Shown one piece after another: positions 9,521 to 53,801 of a DNA stretch of 64,000 nucleotides; within the stretch, counting starts at the first letter, position 1, and each line of letters starts with the position of its first letter. Below the pieces are notes generated by a model. That model did not search any database. It was not told the DNA's origin and was given only the letters and a program-made list of their open reading frames with translations. This stretch comes from Candidatus Latescibacterota bacterium (lineage in GTDB: Bacteria > Latescibacterota > UBA2968 > UBA8231): contig OZ241889.1 in the NCBI GenBank assembly GCA_965203355.1, forward strand, positions 2,816,001-2,880,000. The letters run 5' to 3'. The position numbers were made by a program, and so were the translations under genes.

Positions 9521-10681
9521 ATGCGACGCTATAAGCTGATCGAAGAAGAAGTGGCCGCGATTCCGGCACCCGAATTGGCGGTCGAACAGGCTCTGCATCT
9601 ACACGCCCAATATCCCAAAGAGCTGGAGGTCGGCTTCCCCAGCCCGCTCAATAGTCAGTGTTATCAACTCAGGTCGCGGAGCTATGTCGGCGTGGTGCCA
9701 TTGGGCGCGAATGCCGCCTTGGAAATCAATCCCAAAATACGCTGCTCACTGCTCATGCCCATGCTGGAGTACGCCTACCAGTTGCCCAAGATCAGCGAGC
9801 ACAAGGCCCCGGCCACGATGGGGGATATTTACGAGTTTTGGGCCGAGGTCCTGGCGCGCAAGGTCTTGCAACGGGTGCGGCGTGGGCTGTTTTGGGATTA
9901 CCAAACCCGCGAAGGCCCCGGTCGGTGGGTGCGGGGGCGCATGTACCCCGAGCGCAGCGGGCTGGGTATTCATCCCTACTGTCGTTTTGCCGAGCACACG
10001 CCCGATATCCTCGACAACCGCATCTTGGCCAACGCGCTGTCCGGCCTGCGGTGCTTTGCCTTTCGCCGCGCCAGCGTTCGGCAGATGGTCGGTCGGGCTT
10101 GGTGGACGCTGAGCGAGCTAAATTACCGCCACATTCGCCCCGCTGACTGCCTCGGCGTCGCGTACCATCGGCTCAACGAGGACTACCGCCCCATGCATGC
10201 CCTGTGTTATCCCTTGCTCCAACAGCGCAGTCCAGCTTGGGGGGTAGGGGACGAGGACGGGCCAGCATACCTGTTGCACATGCCGACCTTATTCGAGCGG
10301 TTTTGCACGGCGTTTATTGACCACAAGCTCAATCACCAAGTCGAACTAAAAGCCCAGTATCACACGCGACTAAAGGGAACAGAGCGGCTTTCCTTTCGCT
10401 TAGATATGGCCCTATTTTCGGCGGCAACCGGGCAACCGCTGGCGGTAGTGGATGCAAAATACAAGGCCGATGGTCCCTCGGAACGCGATGTGCAACAAGT
10501 AGTTGCCTATGCAGTACAACTCGGCGTCCGCCGCGCCTTTTTGCTCTATCCCAGTAGCGATATAGACGAGCAGTTCGGGGTTGGTCCGGTCGCCGTGCAA
10601 GCACTCGGGTACGACCTTGCAGCCGAAGATATAGAGCAAGCAGGTCAGCACGTGATTCGCAAGATAGAATGTGTCCTATAA
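9521..10681 (+). CDS. mcrC: McrC-family PD-(D/E)XK restriction endonuclease subunit
   Basis: YVGV, INPK, DNRIL, MPTLFE, RLDM..DAKYK, DVQQVVAYA; coupled to mcrB. Confidence 0.9.
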   Translation: MRRYKLIEEEVAAIPAPELAVEQALHLHAQYPKELEVGFPSPLNSQCYQLRSRSYVGVVPLGANAALEINPKIRCSLLMPMLEYAYQLPKISEHKAPATMGDIYEFWAEVLARKVLQRVRRGLFWDYQTREGPGRWVRGRMYPERSGLGIHPYCRFAEHTPDILDNRILANALSGLRCFAFRRASVRQMVGRAWWTLSELNYRHIRPADCLGVAYHRLNEDYRPMHALCYPLLQQRSPAWGVGDEDGPAYLLHMPTLFERFCTAFIDHKLNHQVELKAQYHTRLKGTERLSFRLDMALFSAATGQPLAVVDAKYKADGPSERDVQQVVAYAVQLGVRRAFLLYPSSDIDEQFGVGPVAVQALGYDLAAEDIEQAGQHVIRKIECVL

Positions 10682-10698
10682 AATTTAATATGTAAATA
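10671..10698 (+). other. dif-like Xer site A
   Basis: GTGTCCTATAA-AATTTA-ATATGTAAATA. Confidence 0.7.
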
Positions 10699-18397: not shown

Positions 18398-18474
18398 GGG
18401 CTAATAGCTCAGCTGGATAGAGCGCCGGTCTCCGGAACCGGAGGTCCCAGGTTCGAATCCTGGTTAGCTCACCA
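18398..18474 (+). tRNA. tRNA-Arg(CCG)
   Basis: Cloverleaf GGGCTAA..TTAGCTC-ACCA; anticodon arm CCGGT-CTCCGGA-ACCGG; GTTCGAATC. Confidence 0.95.
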
Positions 18475-18507
18475 TTTTGTCACCAGACTATGGTCGGATA
18501 ATTGTGT

Positions 18508-18585
18508 CGGGGTGTGGCGCAGCCCGGCTAGCGCGCTTCCTTGGGGTGGAAGAGGTCGCTGGTTCAAATCCAGTCACCCCGACCA
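18508..18585 (+). tRNA. tRNA-Pro(GGG)
   Basis: CGGGGTG..CACCCCG-ACCA; anticodon loop TTGGGGT. Confidence 0.95.
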
Positions 18586-18619
18586 TTTTTTGTAGGTAGA
18601 TAGAGATGCTTGCCCACGT

Positions 18620-18697
18620 CGGGGTGTAGCGCAGCCCGGCTAGCGCACCTGCTTCGGGAGCAGGGGGTCGCCGGTTCAAATCCGGCCACCCCGACCA
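18620..18697 (+). tRNA. tRNA-Pro(CGG)
   Basis: CGGGGTG..CACCCCG-ACCA; anticodon loop TTCGGGA. Confidence 0.95.
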
Positions 18698-27256: not shown

Positions 27257-27282
27257 GTTCTATAACCTATAATATGTAAAAT
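27255..27282 (+). other. dif-like Xer site B
   Basis: AAGTTCTATAA-CCTATA-ATATGTAAAAT. Confidence 0.65.
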
Positions 27283-32024: not shown

Positions 32025-32833
32025 TGACGCTCGGTGTGGTAGGCCATGCTCGCGAGGTCGCCGCTCATCGGGATGCCTTGCGGGGGTGCCGCGATATCCA
32101 GCTCGTACACCAAGCCGACTGTGCCGCCGTATTGGAACGAAAAATAGATGGGCTGGTGTTGTTGCAAGTGGAAGATAAATCGCATTGGGGCGGCGTGGCC
32201 CTCGCGTCGGGTCTGCACGTTATGGCGACCCATCCAGTACAAGTGCCGAGCCATTCTAAGGTATGTGTGCTGTCCCTGGGGAGGCATACGCACTTTTGCT
32301 CGGCTTTAGCCGCTCGACAGGGCATAGCGCATTATTCGCTGGAGCTTTCCTTTGATTCGGCTTTATTCGATCCTATGGATCGCGAGATGGTGTGCAGCCA
32401 AGCGGCCTTGGACCTATGCGACCTACTGCTGAGCACTTGGGGGCCGGTAGATGTGCTGTATAGCAGGATGCGCAACTTTTTTCATCTGGGTCGGATGGAG
32501 GACGTATCGGCCGCGTTGCTGCGGATGCGCAACGGCGTCGAAGGCTCGGTTGCCCTCCTCGATTTTCCAGCGGTGGTGCCGGCGTTGCGCATCCGCGAGT
32601 GCGCCCAAGACGAAATAGTCGATACTTCTTGGCCTTGGGTTTGGGAAGCGGACGATCTGGCGGCGTACTATCGCAATTTCGTCGCCTACATCCAAGGCCG
32701 CGCCCAGCCGTTGTTGGGTTTAGAGCAGGTGACCGAAAGCTATCGTCTTTTGGAGTGGATGCGAATGTCGGCGAGACAGGATGCGATTTTAAACTGCAAG
32801 GAAATAAAAAGTCTCATAAAATTTAATATGTAA
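32021..32833 (+). CDS. Degenerate Gfo/Idh/MocA-like oxidoreductase
   Basis: Overall layout (LGVVG..GLHV.., ED.S.ALL..NGV.G, F...I.G..P) but EKP replaced by THP. Confidence 0.5.
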   Translation: MMTLGVVGHAREVAAHRDALRGCRDIQLVHQADCAAVLERKIDGLVLLQVEDKSHWGGVALASGLHVMATHPVQVPSHSKVCVLSLGRHTHFCSALAARQGIAHYSLELSFDSALFDPMDREMVCSQAALDLCDLLLSTWGPVDVLYSRMRNFFHLGRMEDVSAALLRMRNGVEGSVALLDFPAVVPALRIRECAQDEIVDTSWPWVWEADDLAAYYRNFVAYIQGRAQPLLGLEQVTESYRLLEWMRMSARQDAILNCKEIKSLIKFNM

Positions 32834-32836
32834 CCA
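32809..32836 (+). other. dif-like Xer site C
   Basis: AAGTCTCATAA-AATTTA-ATATGTAACCA. Confidence 0.7.
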
Positions 32837-32850
32837 TAAAACAAAAAAAA

Positions 32851-33852
32851 TCAGCCACCAATCTTAATATAATCAGACGCATTGTCGAGCAGTCTCTCGC
32901 GATTTTCGTAGTAGCGCATGGTCGTCTTTAGATCCTTGTGGCGCAAATGGGCTTGCACCTGCTGGGGCTTGGCTCCACCTTCAATCGCCAAAGTGCAGCA
33001 GGTGTGCCGGAACATGTGTGCGGTGACGTTCTGGGGAAGGCCAGCACGCAAGGCGTACTTTTTGACGATGTGATTCACCGATTGATCCGTCAGTGGCTGG
33101 CCCCGAGAATGGTTGCGCGACAGACTGATGAAAACCTTGCCGGTCGTCGGCAAACCCACCATCTGTAGTTGTTGTTTGTATAATTCTAGATGATGTAGGA
33201 CGATGTTTTGCAGTTTGATTTCCTGCGCCACGCCTGATTTAGTCTCGGGCAGGTACAGGACGTGAAAGACGCCTTCTAAGGATATATCCTCCCAAGCGAC
33301 GCCTGCCACTTCGGAGCGGCGCAGCCCGCCAAACGTGAGCAAGTGAAATATGGCCGCATCGCGCGTGCGTACCAAGTCGTCTTTTTCCTCGGCGATGGCT
33401 TGCTGAATCTTGTTTAGCACCTGATTGGAAAGCGCTTTACCGGCCAGCGTTTCATCTACCTTGTAGCCGCGCACCAATGTAGAGTCAGCGGGATTATTCT
33501 CAATGTGGCCTAAGGCGACCAACATCTTGAACAACGACTTCAGACTGGACAGCTTTCTGTTGATGCTGCTGCGCTTGTAGCCTTCGTTGACGAGTTGATT
33601 TCTAAAGGCGACCACGTGCTCAAAAGTGATTGACTGCAAGATGGCAAGCGATACTTCATGTAGTTCTAGGTCGATGGATGCAAAGAAATGCTCGAGATCG
33701 GAGTAATACGCACGCCGTGTGCGTTCGCTGAGCTGGCCGCTGAGAAATTGTTCCAGCGGATCGTCCGCCATCAACGCGGGCGCAGGCGTTATCCTACAGA
33801 CGATCGGGTTGCGGGTTGCGGCCGCAACATGGCGGCTCGACTGCTCGCTCAT
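32851..33852 (-). CDS. Tyrosine recombinase (Xer-like, single-recombinase candidate)
   Basis: SAM-like N-domain (TRRAY..DL..F, SINRKLSSLKS), GLRRSEV, TKSG, HMFRH, LRH, TTMRY: full R-K-H-R-H-Y set. Confidence 0.9.
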   Translation of the reverse strand: MSEQSSRHVAAATRNPIVCRITPAPALMADDPLEQFLSGQLSERTRRAYYSDLEHFFASIDLELHEVSLAILQSITFEHVVAFRNQLVNEGYKRSSINRKLSSLKSLFKMLVALGHIENNPADSTLVRGYKVDETLAGKALSNQVLNKIQQAIAEEKDDLVRTRDAAIFHLLTFGGLRRSEVAGVAWEDISLEGVFHVLYLPETKSGVAQEIKLQNIVLHHLELYKQQLQMVGLPTTGKVFISLSRNHSRGQPLTDQSVNHIVKKYALRAGLPQNVTAHMFRHTCCTLAIEGGAKPQQVQAHLRHKDLKTTMRYYENRERLLDNASDYIKIGG

Positions 33853-34047
33853 AAAATCTCGCTAGGGCTTAATTGGTATTCCAAATATAGCGAACATCAC
33901 GGGATTTTGCTTTCGCGATGCTTTGTGGCCGCGTCTTGACCCTCGCCGTCCTATCTGAGGCCATGAGGGGCAGTCGCACATGTCAGGGCGCGAAGAGCAA
34001 GATCAATTCTAAACTGGACAATTCATCCACGAACAACCTCCCTTCGG

Positions 34048-34079
34048 ATACTACCGATAATGCCTGTTATCGGTAGTAT
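34048..34079. other. Symmetric dif-like recombination site
   Basis: ATACTACCGATAA-TGCCTG-TTATCGGTAGTAT: perfect 13-bp arms, 6-bp spacer, ATAA-N6-TTAT core. Confidence 0.8.
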
Positions 34080-34099
34080 AATAGCCGAAATTAAAGAAA

Positions 34100-35866
34100 T
34101 CAGAATTTTCGCAGCAGACGCTCCATATCGCTCAATTTCATCCACGCCATGATCGGCTTATCCGTTGGGCTTATGTGCGGCGAGTCGACCTTTAGCAATT
34201 CGCTGATCAAATGTGCCATTTTCTCGGCGTTCAGTTTTTGCCCCTTCTTGATGCTCACTTTGCGTACGTAGGCCAAGACGATTGCTTCGCGCCAAGATCG
34301 ACCCGAATGTTGGCCATCGCGCACGTCGTTCAATAGCTGATAAAAAACCTCGCCTTCGCCAAAGCGATCCAGTTCGACAGGCACGGCTTCCACCAATACC
34401 GTACGGGCACCAAAATCCCGTAAGACAAAGCCCAGCTTGGCAACATCGCCTTGTATTTGCTTGAAAACTTCAAAATCCGCTGCGCCCATTTCTAGCTGTA
34501 TGGGAAAAAGCAACTGCTGGCTTTCTCCAGTTACGCCGTCCATTTTTTTTATGGCTCGATCGTAATTGATGCGTTCGTGTGCAGCCTGCTGATCGACAAA
34601 CAGCAAGCCGTCGGCTACCTCGACGAGGATGTACTGATTGTGAACCTGCCATATTGCAGCGTCTTCGGCGATGGCAATTTGGGTCGCCGGAGCGACGAAA
34701 GTAACGGCGAGCTGATCATCGGCATCCTGGGGTGTTGACCCGGGCCCCGGCAACTTCTGCAATATCGGCGATGTCGGTTCGCCCACGTGTGCTGGGATGG
34801 CAACGCCCTTGCTTTCGCTGAAGCGAGATGGGTCGTCCGGCCGCCGTATTGGGGACGTAGCATAAACAAAGGCTTGCGTATCGGGTCGCCGCAAGCTTTG
34901 CCGGACGCTGTTTTCAATAGCCGCGACAACCTGCCCTTCATTAGCCAAGCGAATTTCCCGCTTGGTCGGATGGACATTGACGTCGATTTTTCGCGGATCC
35001 ATATCGATCCAGAGCATAAACACCGGATGATGTCCTTCGGGTAGCAGCCCCTCAAAGCACCGCTGTACGGCGTTGGCTATCAATCGCGAAGCAATAGGCC
35101 GCCCCTGTACAATGAGGTACTGCTTGCCCTTGCTCCGACCACAGCGCTCGGGACCGACCAACACCCCTTCGAGCTTGAGGCCCTCTTCCGCGTACGCGAG
35201 GTCCAATAGTTCGGCAACTGGAATGCCCAACAGTTCGGCCGCCCGCTCCCGCCGCGATGAAGGAGCGTAGTTCAAGACTTGGCGGTCTTCGCGTTCTAGT
35301 TCAAACCCCAAGGCTGGATAACCAGTCGCTAAATGAATGATGGTCTGGGCCACGTGGCGCGCTTCCACATCAACAGAGCGGAGGAACTTGCGGCGCGCCG
35401 GTGTATTAAAAAACAGGTTCTTTACCACGATGGTCGTGCCGCGCGCTCGGCCGATGCTGTGCATTTCTCGCTCTATGCCCCCTTCCACGACCAAGCGCGT
35501 CCCCACTTCATCTTCCTGTGTACGCGATTCAATGGCCAAGTGAGCTACGGCCCCAATGCTGGCTAGGGCTTCGCCGCGAAAGCCTAGCGTCTGAATCCGA
35601 AACAGATCAGCTACTGAAGCCATCTTGCTCGTGGCATGGCGACGAGCACACAACGCGATATCCGCCCCGTTCATGCCCGAACCATCGTCGGTCACGACGA
35701 TCGACTGCTTGCCACCGGCCTTGATTTCCACGCGGATTTTAGTGGCACCAGCATCGATCGAGTTTTCGACCAATTCCTTCACGACCGAAGCAGGCCGTTC
35801 CACCACCTCGCCAGCGGCTATTTTCCCAATGAGACTTTCGTCTAGAACGCGAATAGTACTCGCCAT
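34100..35866 (-). CDS. mutL: DNA mismatch repair protein MutL
   Basis: IAAGEVVERPASVVKELVENSIDA, GFRGEAL, DVNVHP. Confidence 0.95.
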   Translation of the reverse strand: MASTIRVLDESLIGKIAAGEVVERPASVVKELVENSIDAGATKIRVEIKAGGKQSIVVTDDGSGMNGADIALCARRHATSKMASVADLFRIQTLGFRGEALASIGAVAHLAIESRTQEDEVGTRLVVEGGIEREMHSIGRARGTTIVVKNLFFNTPARRKFLRSVDVEARHVAQTIIHLATGYPALGFELEREDRQVLNYAPSSRRERAAELLGIPVAELLDLAYAEEGLKLEGVLVGPERCGRSKGKQYLIVQGRPIASRLIANAVQRCFEGLLPEGHHPVFMLWIDMDPRKIDVNVHPTKREIRLANEGQVVAAIENSVRQSLRRPDTQAFVYATSPIRRPDDPSRFSESKGVAIPAHVGEPTSPILQKLPGPGSTPQDADDQLAVTFVAPATQIAIAEDAAIWQVHNQYILVEVADGLLFVDQQAAHERINYDRAIKKMDGVTGESQQLLFPIQLEMGAADFEVFKQIQGDVAKLGFVLRDFGARTVLVEAVPVELDRFGEGEVFYQLLNDVRDGQHSGRSWREAIVLAYVRKVSIKKGQKLNAEKMAHLISELLKVDSPHISPTDKPIMAWMKLSDMERLLRKF

Positions 35867-35872
35867 ATGTCC

Positions 35873-36397
35873 TCATAACTCGGCCCAAAGCCGCTCAGCC
35901 CGCTGGCGGAATTCGGCTTGGGTAATTTGGCCTTGTTTGAGCGCGGTTTCCAAGTCGCGCAAGCGACGGCGTGGCCCCCCGCCCCCTTTGAGCTCTAGCC
36001 GTATTTGAGACCAGATGTGCCATCCCCCCACGCCGAGCAATAAGGCGATGAAAACCACACCTCCCCACCACGAGGCCCCTTGCTCTTGACGCACTGCGCC
36101 CCCCCGCCGTCGCCAATCTTCGGCCACGGCCGGGTCAGGCTCGGCTAGCTCAATCCGCTTGGCTACCGTCTCGCCGTTGATTCCTTGGACGCGGACCGGG
36201 CTTGTGAGCTGCCAAGTGAGTTCTTGGGGTTGCACGATCAGATACTCAATTTGATCGGCCTCTCGTATCCGGTCGAATTGCTCCCTAGTAACCGGCACGG
36301 CCATAGGACTCAGCATGTTGAACAGCAACACGATGGCCAACAAGAAGAATGCGAGTGCAAGAGCGAAGTAGGTGGGTTGTGATTGTTTTTTTGTCAT
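35873..36397 (-). CDS. Two-TM protein resembling FtsH N-terminal region with SHOCT-like tail
   Basis: TM-periplasmic loop-TM-GGG, then L..ALKQGQITQAEF. Confidence 0.55.
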   Translation of the reverse strand: MTKKQSQPTYFALALAFFLLAIVLLFNMLSPMAVPVTREQFDRIREADQIEYLIVQPQELTWQLTSPVRVQGINGETVAKRIELAEPDPAVAEDWRRRGGAVRQEQGASWWGGVVFIALLLGVGGWHIWSQIRLELKGGGGPRRRLRDLETALKQGQITQAEFRQRAERLWAEL

Positions 36398-36401
36398 TTT
36401 T

Positions 36402-36429
36402 TGTTTACATATAAAATTTTATAAGACTT
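36402..36429 (-). other. dif-like Xer site D
   Basis: Minus strand AAGTCTTATAA-AATTTT-ATATGTAAACA. Confidence 0.7.
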
Positions 36430-36432
36430 CTT

Positions 36433-39309
<2,877 letters not shown>

Positions 39310-39318
<9 letters not shown>

Positions 39319-39337
39319 AATAATCCTTATAAGACAT
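39310..39337 (-). other. dif-like Xer site E
   Basis: Minus strand ATGTCTTATAA-GGATTA-TTATGTCAATA. Confidence 0.7.
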
Positions 39338-40642
39338 TTATGGATACAGACGCTGCATCGTGCGCGGAAATGGAATGGTCTCGCGCACGTGCTTGACGCC
39401 GCACAACCAAGCGACCACCCGTTCGATGCCCATGCCGAAGCCCGCATGTTCTACGGATCCATAGCGCCGCAAGTCGAGATACCAGCTAAAGGCTTCGTCG
39501 GGCAACTGATGCGTGGAAATTTTGTGCTGCAAGACGGCAAGATCGTCTTCGCGTTGTCCGCCCCCGATGATTTCCCCGTAGCCTTCGGGTGCCAACAGGT
39601 CCATGCACAGGGCTAAGCGGCGATCTTGAGCATCTTCCTTCATGTAGAACGCTTTGACCGCGCTGGGATAGCGGTGGACGAAAACCGGCGAATCGAACTC
39701 AGAGGCCAAGAGCGTTTCGTCGTCCCCCCCCAGATCGCGCCCCCAGGCGATGTCGCTACCCAAGGCCGTCAAGCGCGCAACGGCCTTATCATAGGTCAGG
39801 CGCGGAAAGGGCCGGTTGATCTGTTCCAACTTGGCGGTATCTCGCTCGAGGAGCTTTAGCTCTTCGCGGCGGCGGTCGAGTACGCGGTCGAGCATGCACA
39901 AGACCATGTCCTCGGCTAGGGCCATGGCACCCGCTAGATCGCAATACGCCATCTCCGGCTCGATCATCCAGAACTCGGTCAGGTGACGGCGGGTCTTGGA
40001 TTTTTCAGCGCGAAACGTAGGCCCAAAACAATAGACTTTGCCTAAGGCCATGGCGGCCGCTTCCATATAGAGCTGGCCACTCTGGGTCAAATAAGCCGTG
40101 TCGTCAAAATACGCGGTCTCGAACAGAGTCGAAGTCCCCTCACAGGCGGCGGGCGTAAAAATCGGCGCATCCACGAGAACAAAGCCACGCGCTTCCATGA
40201 AGTCGCGGCAGGCTTTGCAAACTTCGCTGCGGATCTTGAGAATGGCCCCCGGACGAGCAGACCGCAGCCACAAGTGTCGGTGGTCGAGGAGAAAAGACAC
40301 TCCATGTTCCTTGGGTGTGATGGGGTATGGCTCCGCTTTCTGCACGACTTCGAGGTGGCTAACTCCGACCTCATAGCCGATCGGTGCCCGGGCCTCCCGC
40401 CGGACTTGACCGCGGATTACGAGCGAAGATTCTTGGGGCAAGTGATCGCACCGCTCGAACAGCTCGGCTTCGACATCCCCCTTAAAAACGACGCATTGCA
40501 CTACGCCACTGCCGTCACGCAGTTGCAAAAAATGCAGTTTGCCGCTCGAGCGCTTATTGTACAACCAACCGCGCAGCACCACTTCTCGGCCCTCGTAGCG
40601 ACCAATATCAGCCACCTGAATCGACTTCATTTGCTTATCCAT
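39338..40642 (-). CDS. asnS: Asparagine--tRNA ligase
   Basis: [42 protein letters not shown]. Confidence 0.95.
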
Positions 40643-52716: not shown

Positions 52717-52791
52717 TGGAGCGGGAGACGGGAATCGAACCCGCGACATCAAGCTTGGGAAGCTTGCGTTCTACCCCTGAACTACTCCCGC
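52717..52791 (-). tRNA. tRNA-Gly(CCC)
   Basis: GCGGGAG..CTCCCGC-TCCA; anticodon arm CAAGC-TTCCCAA-GCTTG. Confidence 0.95.
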
Positions 52792-52831: not shown

Positions 52832-53782
52832 TCAACCCGCTCCACGGCCCCAGCGATACCTCCACTCGCCGACGATGCGCTGGACGACGCCAGCCTTTCC
52901 CCATACGTCGAGGTCTAATTCGCGCAAGCGACGATCGCGGCGGCACCACGTTATTTGTCGCTTGGCCAAGTGGCGGGTGCGCTGCTTGGTCTGCTCAATA
53001 GCTTCCTGCCAAGGGCAATGCCCGGCCAGCGCCCGGCACATTTCGAAATAGCCCAAAGTCCCCAAGGCACTTTCGCTTGGATCGTATCCCATTTCGCGCA
53101 AGGAGCGGACTTCCTCGACCCATCCCTGCTCGACCATCTGATCAACCCGCTGGTCAATTCGCTCGTAGAGCCGGCGGCGCACCATAGTCAGACTGATCAT
53201 TTGCGGGCGGCGCACCAGCGGCTGTCCCTGACGCTCTCGCCAGAGCTTGCTGAGCGTACCCTTACCCGTCATCACTACCTCCAACGCCCGCAGGATTCGC
53301 TGTGCGTCGCTCGGCGGCAAACGCGCTTGCGCGACTGGATCTCGACGGCCTAACTCCTCATATAGGGATGCCAGCCCCTCGCAGTGCAGGCGCTGTTGCA
53401 ATTCGGCGCGGGTCGGCGCGTATTGGGTGTCGTCCTCAAAGCATCCGTCTAACGCACTCTGCCAGTACAGGCCCGTTCCTCCCACCACAATGGGAAGGCC
53501 CTCTCGGTTCCAGACCTGCCCGATGATATGCCGTGCGGCGCGCGCGTACGCTCCCGCGCTGTAGTCTTCCTCGGGAGCGATTACATCAAGTAAATGATGG
53601 GGGCATTGATTTTGCTGTTCAGCGGTTGGCTTGGCCGTACCGATATTCATGTAGCGGTAGATTTGCCGCGAGTCGGCCGAGATAATCTCCGCTTTGGGTA
53701 CGTGTTGAGCTACTTCGAGGGCTATTTCTGTTTTGCCGGTGGCCGTGGGTCCAGTGATTAGTATTAATGGTTTAATTAACAT
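52832..53782 (-). CDS. miaA: tRNA dimethylallyltransferase
   Basis: GPTATGKT, DSRQIY, IGTAKP, GGTGLY, AKRQ.TW. Confidence 0.95.
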   Translation of the reverse strand: MLIKPLILITGPTATGKTEIALEVAQHVPKAEIISADSRQIYRYMNIGTAKPTAEQQNQCPHHLLDVIAPEEDYSAGAYARAARHIIGQVWNREGLPIVVGGTGLYWQSALDGCFEDDTQYAPTRAELQQRLHCEGLASLYEELGRRDPVAQARLPPSDAQRILRALEVVMTGKGTLSKLWRERQGQPLVRRPQMISLTMVRRRLYERIDQRVDQMVEQGWVEEVRSLREMGYDPSESALGTLGYFEMCRALAGHCPWQEAIEQTKQRTRHLAKRQITWCRRDRRLRELDLDVWGKAGVVQRIVGEWRYRWGRGAG

Positions 53783-53801
53783 ATTACATATTATAGGACT
53801 A
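53774..53801 (-). other. dif-like Xer site F
   Basis: Minus strand TAGTCCTATAA-TATGTA-ATATGTTAATT. Confidence 0.7.

Follow-up and report, generated by a model that had tools for sequence, protein, structure and literature searches.

The closest described counterparts of the locus reported here are recombination systems in which one Xer-like enzyme serves a site at the terminus. The excerpts of PMC5357621 describe XerS/difSL of streptococci and lactococci as a terminus module in which a lone Xer-like recombinase gene lies beside a site with relatively symmetric arms, and present XerH/difH of Helicobacter and Campylobacter and the archaeal XerA/dif as systems of one recombinase and a terminus site with two imperfect inverted arms. 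For the Legionellales, a group in which homologues of XerC, XerD or dif are said not to have been identified before, PMC9765430 reports XerL/dif, a lineage-specific single recombinase found by terminus position, and a mobile element that exploits the system by means of a mimic site. In the dif modules (pdif) of Acinetobacter plasmids and chromosomes, cargo lies between inverted XerC/D sites and, according to extracts of three reports, there is evidence of shuffling and inversion (PMC13141974, PMC12907356, PMC5790767). Here we describe a stretch of 64,000 nucleotides (the window) from a Candidatus Latescibacterota bacterium (assembly GCA_965203355.1, contig OZ241889.1, positions 2,816,001 to 2,880,000, forward strand), in which xer3, a gene for a clade-specific Xer-like tyrosine recombinase, adjoins a dif-like palindrome, P, and the pair is nested in a mirrored array of XerCD-type dif-like sites, D. 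The sequence comparisons presented below make us lean, if only slightly, towards the view that Xer3/P is a gene-linked, single-recombinase dimer-resolution module like XerS/difSL, which coexists here with XerCD.

Xer3/P shares with XerS/difSL a gene-adjacent site at the terminus; it differs in that Xer3 scores far below the XerS model, in a spacer of 6 base pairs (bp) in place of the 11-bp central region given for difSL in the same excerpts, in the retention of XerC and XerD by the lineage, and in the nesting of the module between inverted XerCD-type sites. XerH/difH and XerA/dif differ as well: the match of Xer3 to the archaeal XerA structure and its score against the XerA model are both low (values below), the arm sequences differ, and the host here belongs to another phylum and also has XerCD. 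The likeness to XerL/dif lies in the lineage-specific occurrence and in the terminus position; XerC, XerD and dif-like sites, which had not been identified in the Legionellales, are present here.

Xer3 and the palindrome P at the replication terminus

Related loci were obtained by a scan of species-representative genomes, which gave 53 loci in Latescibacterota metagenome-assembled genomes, many of them complete chromosomes, and two remote matches. Co-occurrence was assessed in 120 genomes spread evenly over the phylum, with at most two mismatches allowed to the P pattern. Statements about whole genomes come from these relatives and not from the window's own genome. The elements of the module in the window are the following.

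34048-34079, no strand assigned: P, a near-palindrome of dif architecture with 13-14-bp arms and the spacer TGCCTG on the plus strand, putative core recombination site of Xer3
32851-33852, minus strand: xer3, 333 amino acids as called, clade-specific Xer-like tyrosine recombinase, conserved from about residue 25-30 onwards
33881-33911, minus strand: promoter-like block, GCAAAATCC...GTTCGCTATATTTGG in gene sense, also as GCTATATTTGG, at about 30-60 bp before the ATG, apart from P

P is a palindrome of 13+6+13 bp, ATACTACCGATAA-TGCCTG-TTATCGGTAGTAT, with arms of 13 nucleotides that are 100% complementary and a spacer of 6 nucleotides. It lies 195 bp upstream of the xer3 ATG (33852), where a first-pass annotation made from the letters of the window had placed it, and 20 bp past the mutL stop codon (34100). 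The core, ATAA-N6-TTAT, bears out the earlier description of P as a dif-like site; just two such cores with inverted arms occur in the window, P included, and one other copy of the P 13-mer, at 946, was found in the window at up to two mismatches. A P-type site (arms symmetric at 10 or more of 14 positions) lies upstream of the xer3 orthologue, whose identity to Xer3 falls as low as 57%, in 46 of 54 loci, so that P is more than a chance palindrome, and the synteny comparison proposed in the first-pass annotation thus came out in favour of a conserved gene-site pair; of the remaining loci, five have weaker sites, one has no site, one is itself truncated and one is doubtful. The distance to the gene is 46-900 bp in most loci, an adjacency of the XerS/difSL type. 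The 46 sites have the consensus TATACTnnCGATAA - 6 bp - TTATCGnnAGTATA, and 26 of them carry the spacer TGCCTG. The perfect symmetry that had drawn attention to P is real in the window but is not conserved: full arm symmetry is found in just four of the 46 sites, and the other 42 have one to four arm mismatches, clustered at two or three positions before GATAA, with GATAA/TTATC fixed.

In an alignment of the upstream region (n=11) only two islands are conserved, P and the promoter-like block, which lies 60-190 bp from P and which may resemble the Bacteroidota -7 box. It had been suggested that the site might also autoregulate the gene; this is unlikely, given that the conserved promoter-like block lies apart from P. 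About 130 bp between P and this block (33916-34048) are present in the window and missing from close relatives, and in a related strain (sequencing run X1) the same segment is exchanged for 19 other nucleotides and P is kept.

Xer3 carries a Phage_integrase domain (PF00589, 94.8 bits against a cut-off of 27.1) and a SAM-like N-terminal domain (PF02899, 46.4 against 22.3), and with both above cut-off it belongs to the tyrosine recombinase superfamily. As first noted, all catalytic residues are in place: each of the 15 Xer3 orthologues compared, including those from lineages with a dead XerC (see below), has R178, K213, H279, R282, H305 and Y314, and these residues align with the motifs of XerC and XerD from the complete relative G001, their individual roles being those that we presume from the Cre and XerD motifs. 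Xer3 scored 130.7 bits against the XerC model TIGR02224 (cut-off 335.15), 119.8 against the XerD model TIGR02225 (329.6), 110.1 against the XerA model NF040815 (220) and 84.3 against the XerS model NF003462 (267); being far under these NCBIfam cut-offs, it is Xer-like and yet falls into none of these four curated groups. The nearest solved structures by sequence are Escherichia coli XerD (1a0p, 1.2e-17) and a Pyrococcus XerC-like protein (4a8e, 7e-11), and no XerH chain is found among the eight PDB matches at E <= 1e-5.

Full-length orthologues with at least 57% identity to Xer3 occur in 28 of the 120 phylum genomes, and the next-best matches are at most 32% identical. The wider family is graded: a profile-free search of 1.8 billion representatives gave 52 clusters at E <= 1e-30, with identity falling from 61% to about 30%. 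Two remote metagenome homologues, L106 (679-712) and L108 (2938-2971), with 37% and 32% identity, have CCGATAA-N6-TTATCGG 192 and 60 bp upstream of the gene, suggesting that the pairing of gene and site may predate the Latescibacterota clade. The ATAA-N6-TTAT palindrome was not found at the more distant metagenome homologues L073-L080 and L090-L104, some of which bear unrelated palindromes.

The distribution of P follows that of the recombinase, as the P pattern was found in 21 of 28 Xer3-bearing genomes versus 7 of 92 without Xer3. Those seven matches are other palindromes; the two on complete chromosomes (G073 and G076) are neither at the terminus nor directly beside a recombinase gene, since no recombinase is near the site in G076 and a weak match of 24% identity lies about 1.3 kb off in G073. 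Perfect palindromes of the form ATTTCCGATAA-N6-TTATCGGAAAT were seen in the Xer3-less genomes G073 (C1 5,813,800), G076 (C1 3,511,738), G052 and G121, toward the origin side, and are perhaps an operator. The ATTTCCGATAA-type palindrome was considered as a phylum-wide palindromic dif and rejected, because none is present in G001-G005, the copies in G073 and G076 are separated from dnaA by 12% and 8% of the circle, and a recombinase does not adjoin them.

P sits at the replication terminus. In six of six complete relatives for which its distance was computed it is antipodal to dnaA (47-52% of the circle; G001 50.8, G002 51.8, G003 50.7, G004 48.6, G005 47.0, G065 50.4). The GC skew of the window is positive until about 34 kb and negative after it, a switch that falls inside the invertible block described in the next section; the cumulative G-C curve peaks at 33997, which is 51 bp away from P, and the long open reading frames (ORFs) converge at 32833/32851. 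A dif elsewhere, at the true skew extremum, had been named as one of the observations that would speak against the module; this does not apply to P, though the D sites share its terminus.

In the arrangement that we favour, P would be the core recombination site of the adjoining Xer3, with one subunit bound per 13-14-bp arm and a homotetramer exchanging strands across the 6-bp spacer. Where a P at the terminus has no second site of its spacer type on the same chromosome, its sole possible partner would be the copy on the sister chromosome, and a lone site that can pair only with its sister copy would make of Xer3/P a module that turns dimers into monomers. It perhaps also helps to unlink sisters, as XerS/difSL, XerH/difH and XerL/dif do. 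Binding of P by Xer3, strand exchange and dimer resolution are inferences from sequence, as would be any dependence on FtsK and the identity of the enzyme that inverts the surrounding block.

Mirrored D sites and an invertible terminus block

The first-pass annotation had raised the possibility that XerCD-type sites were left over for a structural role, and the idea of left-over sites fits what we found: six motifs in the window that, in relatives, are confined to the terminus. A search with a pattern based on the E. coli XerD-arm consensus gave six matches in the window versus 0.45 expected, and the refined 23-bp pattern GTCYYATAA-N6-WTATGTNA gave six versus none in 100 shuffles. As a dif finder across the phylum the E. 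coli-based pattern was discarded, since it matched 24 of 120 genomes, no more than the reversed control. The six sites are:

10673-10695, plus strand: D1, outer site of the left arm
27257-27279, plus strand: D2, left arm, directly preceding an ORF that starts at 27281
32811-32833, plus strand: D3, inner left site, GTCTCATAA-AATTTA-ATATGTAA, overlapping the orf270 stop codon, left border of the invertible block
36405-36427, minus strand: D4, inner right site, inverted relative to D3, 8 nucleotides upstream of the orf174 start, right border of the block
39313-39335, minus strand: D5, right arm, its right half containing the likely leuS start ATG
53777-53799, minus strand: D6, outer site of the right arm, overlapping the start codon of ORF 52832-53782

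The window sites are mirrored, with three inward-facing copies on each side of the terminus, and four of the six overlap or directly precede start codons. The same holds for position and polarity in the complete relatives G001-G005 (4.5-6.6 Mb each), where 26 of 26 D matches lie within 25 kb of P (the reversed-pattern control gave one match), all 13 plus-strand matches to its left and all 13 minus-strand matches to its right. As to D5, leuS as called (36433-39447) overlaps the next ORF (39338-40642) by 110 bp, and the ATG inside D5 near 39318, preceded by AAGGA, is the likelier leuS start.

With two arms and a variable spacer, D has the form of an XerCD site, and Xer3-less members of the phylum show single D-like sequences. 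In the complete Xer3-less genome G014, one D-like site is 230 bp and another 1.2 kb away from the local peak of cumulative skew, and their distance from dnaA is 47% of the circle; this position at the skew switch leads us to read D as the phylum's XerCD type of dif, which leaves P for Xer3. The genomes that support a terminus position of D-like sites in Xer3-less members are G014 and perhaps G098. Single D-like matches in G088, G033 and G101 were not retained as dif, as their distance from dnaA is 32-39% of the circle and chance may account for them. The two G014 sites (C1 4,500,774 and 4,501,704; L070/L071) are dif-like direct repeats 930 bp apart with small ORFs between them, an arrangement that resembles a small element inserted into dif.

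The array could be a by-product of repeated inversions and duplications, it could provide the borders for an XerCD-driven flipping of the cassette, or it could consist of polar protein-bound barriers. In fork traps (Tus-Ter, RTP-Ter), terminus motifs are laid out in two opposed groups. D resembles these in being an asymmetric 23-bp motif whose copies are confined to the terminus and form two opposed inward-facing groups; it differs from them in its XerCD form of two arms plus spacer and in its likeness to the probable dif of Xer3-less relatives. A candidate terminator protein for the fork-trap reading was not found: orf174 and orf270, considered as terminator or accessory proteins, have no Pfam match above cut-off and no DNA-binding lead in the Atlas, in which orf174 forms its own cluster with weak leads.

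The two inner D sites enclose a block that is found in two orientations.

32834-36404, no strand assigned: block xer3-P-mutL-orf174, 3.5 kb, in both orientations among close relatives (L001-L020, L043, L048)
34100-35866, minus strand: mutL, inside the block (TIGR00585, 476.7 bits)
35873-36397, minus strand: orf174, at the head of the block, function not assigned by Pfam

Plus-strand rsgA-hprK-orf270 lies on one side of gene and site and minus-strand mutL-orf174-leuS on the other, in agreement with the first description of the neighbourhood (the hprK operon and mutL), which also stated correctly that no transfer RNA (tRNA) gene is nearby: the nearest are at 18398-18697 and 52717-52791, and none is within 15 kb. 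In arrangement A, rsgA, hprK and orf270 are followed by orf174, mutL, P and xer3, all reading in the same direction, and then by leuS facing them; arrangement B, seen in the window and in L001, L002, L006, L007, L009, L010, L011, L019 and L043, is the same with the block reversed in place. Inverted D sites bracket the block in both arrangements, as they do the cargo of a dif module (in the window, D3 on the plus and D4 on the minus strand), and the spacers of the bracketing pair are identical in five of about 16 close genomes. The absence of a duplicated attachment site, which had been part of the earlier description, therefore did not survive: inverted 23-bp dif-like repeats (32811-32833, plus; 36405-36427, minus) bracket both gene and site.

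A quick maximum-likelihood tree of leucyl-tRNA synthetase (LeuRS; 43 rows), whose gene is outside the block, forces at least five changes of arrangement by well-supported branches, all within the 20-row close clade, where sister pairs are as little as 1-2% apart. When the block flips, mutL switches strand at the place where replication forks meet. In the wider clade, a minus-strand D lies just past the xer3 stop codon in about 26 of 35 scanned loci and a plus-strand D upstream in about 21, the latter between mutL and P or further out, so that P-xer3 is generally nested between mirrored D sites. Among contigs of public sequencing runs, two runs contain the whole stretch in the window's arrangement; in one run of a related strain, contigs end at both D3 and D4, and a junction of the other orientation was not among the contigs listed. 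The flips would result from recombination between inverted XerCD-type dif sites, which would carry Xer3/P along with the 3.5-kb block.

Compared with the Acinetobacter dif modules, as these appear in the extracts cited above, the block is at a chromosomal terminus in another phylum, contains the housekeeping gene mutL and a recombinase gene with its own site, lacks resistance genes, and has outer sites that form a mirrored array. No described counterpart of a flipping, mutL-carrying cassette at the fork meeting point was found. The titles and abstracts searched contain no description of a third Xer protein beside XerCD at the terminus or of a mirrored dif-like array, and a literature search for 'Latescibacter' with 'tyrosine recombinase' gave no match.

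XerC, XerD and further P-type sites in relatives

Xer3 had been introduced as a lone recombinase, and in this respect the first description was wrong for the lineage. Each of the five complete relatives has three conserved PF00589 genes, encoding Xer3, an XerD type and an XerC type, so that the XerC/XerD pair, absence of which would characterise a single-recombinase system, is present in all five. In G001, XerD is encoded next to uvrC and scores 335.5 bits against TIGR02225, above the cut-off, and the XerC type is encoded after topA and scores 316 bits against TIGR02224, just under the cut-off, and 291 versus 279 against NF001399; both have the catalytic motifs. FtsK with a gamma domain was found in three of three genomes checked.

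In the phylum-wide sample, counted with the XerD model (E <= 1e-50), at least two XerC/D-type genes are present in 16 of the 28 Xer3-bearing genomes, exactly one in 11 and none in one; the corresponding numbers for the 92 Xer3-less genomes are 78, 13 and one. The gene that remains in the single-match Xer3 genomes is the XerD orthologue next to uvrC (4/4 examined), and their XerC orthologue, located after topA in two of two genomes checked, scores about 150 bits versus 316. In five of five genomes (G114, G071, G122, G048 and G082; loci L159 4368-5336, minus strand, L160 4463-5428, plus strand, L161, L162 and L163) this XerC has lost the tyrosine nucleophile, both histidines and the hairpin lysine. 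Judged by its residues, XerC is thus catalytically dead in another Xer3-bearing subclade, one that keeps P and Xer3, which argues that Xer3 would carry the load of resolution there. XerD of this subclade has Q in place of the first histidine of HxxR and keeps R, H and Y; D-like sites are poorer, and no scanned locus has one at zero mismatches. Compared across the window's clade and that of G114, Xer3 is 63% identical, XerD 47% and XerC 39%, with UvrC at 62% and TopA at 68%. The proposal that Xer3 took over from XerCD is strengthened by the subclade with dead XerC (5/5 examined); in the window's own clade XerC and XerD look intact.

The check for second copies of the palindrome, suggested at the outset, gave a divided answer. 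P is the sole match in G002 and G004 and the sole close match in G003 (the other being one weak match with three mismatches), whereas further P-type sites with other spacers occur in G001 (8), G083 (12), G090 (4), G065 (3) and G005 (3). At three loci in G001 (L060 4159-4344, L061 4039-4224 and L063 3952-4137) two inverted P-type sites are 158 bp apart, with a spacer that is the same within the pair and unlike the terminus spacer. Each pair encloses a sigma-70-like promoter element (TTGACA-17-TAAGTT or TAGATT), and two of the three face genes for leucine-rich repeat (LRR) proteins with a sorting tail of the type IX secretion system (T9SS). In their anatomy the pairs look like invertible promoters; no inverted allele was seen for any of them. 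As XerC, XerD and Xer3 are the only three PF00589 proteins of G001, Xer3 is likely the invertase of these promoter-like pairs. The anatomy of the pairs argues for P-type arms as genuine substrates of recombination, with the identity of the spacer deciding which sites can pair.

Two other genomes have P-type repeats of a different kind. In G005, two identical 31-bp P-type sites are inverted and 800 kb apart on one replichore (C1 1,987,960 = L067 3961; 2,789,142 = L068 4143), one of them orthologous in position to a G001 site (L062 3773) between two genes of unknown function. G083 has hybrid sites, with one P-type arm and the other arm AGTGAGGATAA, that form identical direct repeats 32 kb apart (e.g., C2:2,768,306 and C2:2,800,225) and may represent the two ends of an element that Xer3 integrated.

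Alternative explanations and meaning

Several observations weigh against dimer resolution by Xer3/P. A seemingly intact XerCD, FtsK-gamma and D sites within 1.2-2.3 kb of P suggest that XerCD may still resolve dimers here, with Xer3 redundant or otherwise employed. The extra P-type sites suggest that Xer3 may be chiefly an invertase or integrase, for which the gene-side P would be a home or regulatory site. The spacer is directed one way relative to xer3 in 27 of the 46 sites and the other way in 19, and differs even between sister genomes. As the skew peak sits in the flipping block, its 51-bp closeness to P is valid only to a few kb. Finally, for the window's own genome the uniqueness of P and the presence of XerCD are extrapolations from a relative with an Xer3 of 93% identity.

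Most of these points come together in an explanation that we regard as possible though doubtful, according to which XerCD, acting at a D site, continues to resolve dimers in this lineage, while Xer3/P is a resident cassette like that of a dif module and its recombinase has another purpose; Xer3 could then invert promoter switches or move P-type elements, and P could be its home site, a regulatory site or a relic. XerC, XerD and FtsK-gamma are seemingly intact in close relatives, inverted D sites bracket P-xer3 in most loci, and the switch-like pairs by LRR/T9SS genes in G001 and the hybrid-armed direct repeats in G083 also count in its favour. However, secondary sites occur only sporadically (G002 and G004 have none, G003 a single weak one), whereas the terminus site and its gene are conserved throughout, and a single chromosomal site has no partner inside its chromosome. 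XerC is dead in all five genomes of a subclade that retained P and Xer3, Xer3 is better conserved than XerC or XerD, and P stands apart from the promoter-like block.

The other two explanations concern P itself. That it is a structural palindrome, acting in RNA as a hairpin or terminator downstream of mutL, as a cruciform or as an operator bound by a dimeric regulator, is highly improbable. P lies close behind the mutL stop codon and as RNA folds at -25.4 kcal/mol (z-score -4.3), but a terminator scan does not flag it, a U-tract after the hairpin is absent, and no Rfam family matches it. Template switching at hairpins yields spacer flips and homogenised arms, and we attribute the changes of spacer direction to loop inversion of this kind at palindromes; against a structural role, 42 of the 46 sites have arm mismatches at a few positions and an invariant GATAA/TTATC. 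Several loci have a D site interposed between mutL and P, P co-occurs with Xer3 while the matches in Xer3-less genomes are other palindromes, and the spacers match within the inverted pairs of G001. We give hardly any credence to the explanation that P is this clade's XerCD dif, next to an unrelated recombinase gene. Its core, its position and the presence of XerCD would suit such a role, yet Xer3-less members of the phylum with XerC and XerD carry no such P-type sites, and the complete genome G014 has D-like sites at its skew switch instead; near-identical arms suit one protein species and not two, and P persists where XerC is dead.

A broader scenario, which we put forward as rather unlikely in its entirety, is that the locus is a snapshot of one system being replaced by another. 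Xer3/P might have entered an ancestral XerCD dif and taken over, and the old dif might have been duplicated into the mirrored, terminus-only array that now flips the cassette and perhaps forms polar, XerCD-bound barriers to FtsK or replication forks; XerC would then have died in one subclade, and in some genomes Xer3 would also have been recruited for invertible promoters before secreted LRR proteins.

To our knowledge, XerS, XerH, XerA and XerL are each known only as completed replacements of XerCD. In the Latescibacterota, graded stages can be seen within one phylum, from XerCD with one dif-like site, via XerCD with Xer3/P and multiplied dif-like sites, to Xer3/P with a dead XerC, and this makes the route of replacement testable by comparative genomics and plasmid-resolution assays. 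The mirrored D array and the flipping cassette are relevant to how bacteria other than the model species organise replication termination, FtsK-driven sorting and recombination. These organisms seem to live in association with sponges, as two sequencing runs labelled sponge metagenome (X1 and X2) contain 0.44 and 0.43 of the sampled words, and in such a probable sponge symbiont the possible Xer3-driven switches before LRR proteins may matter for symbiosis.

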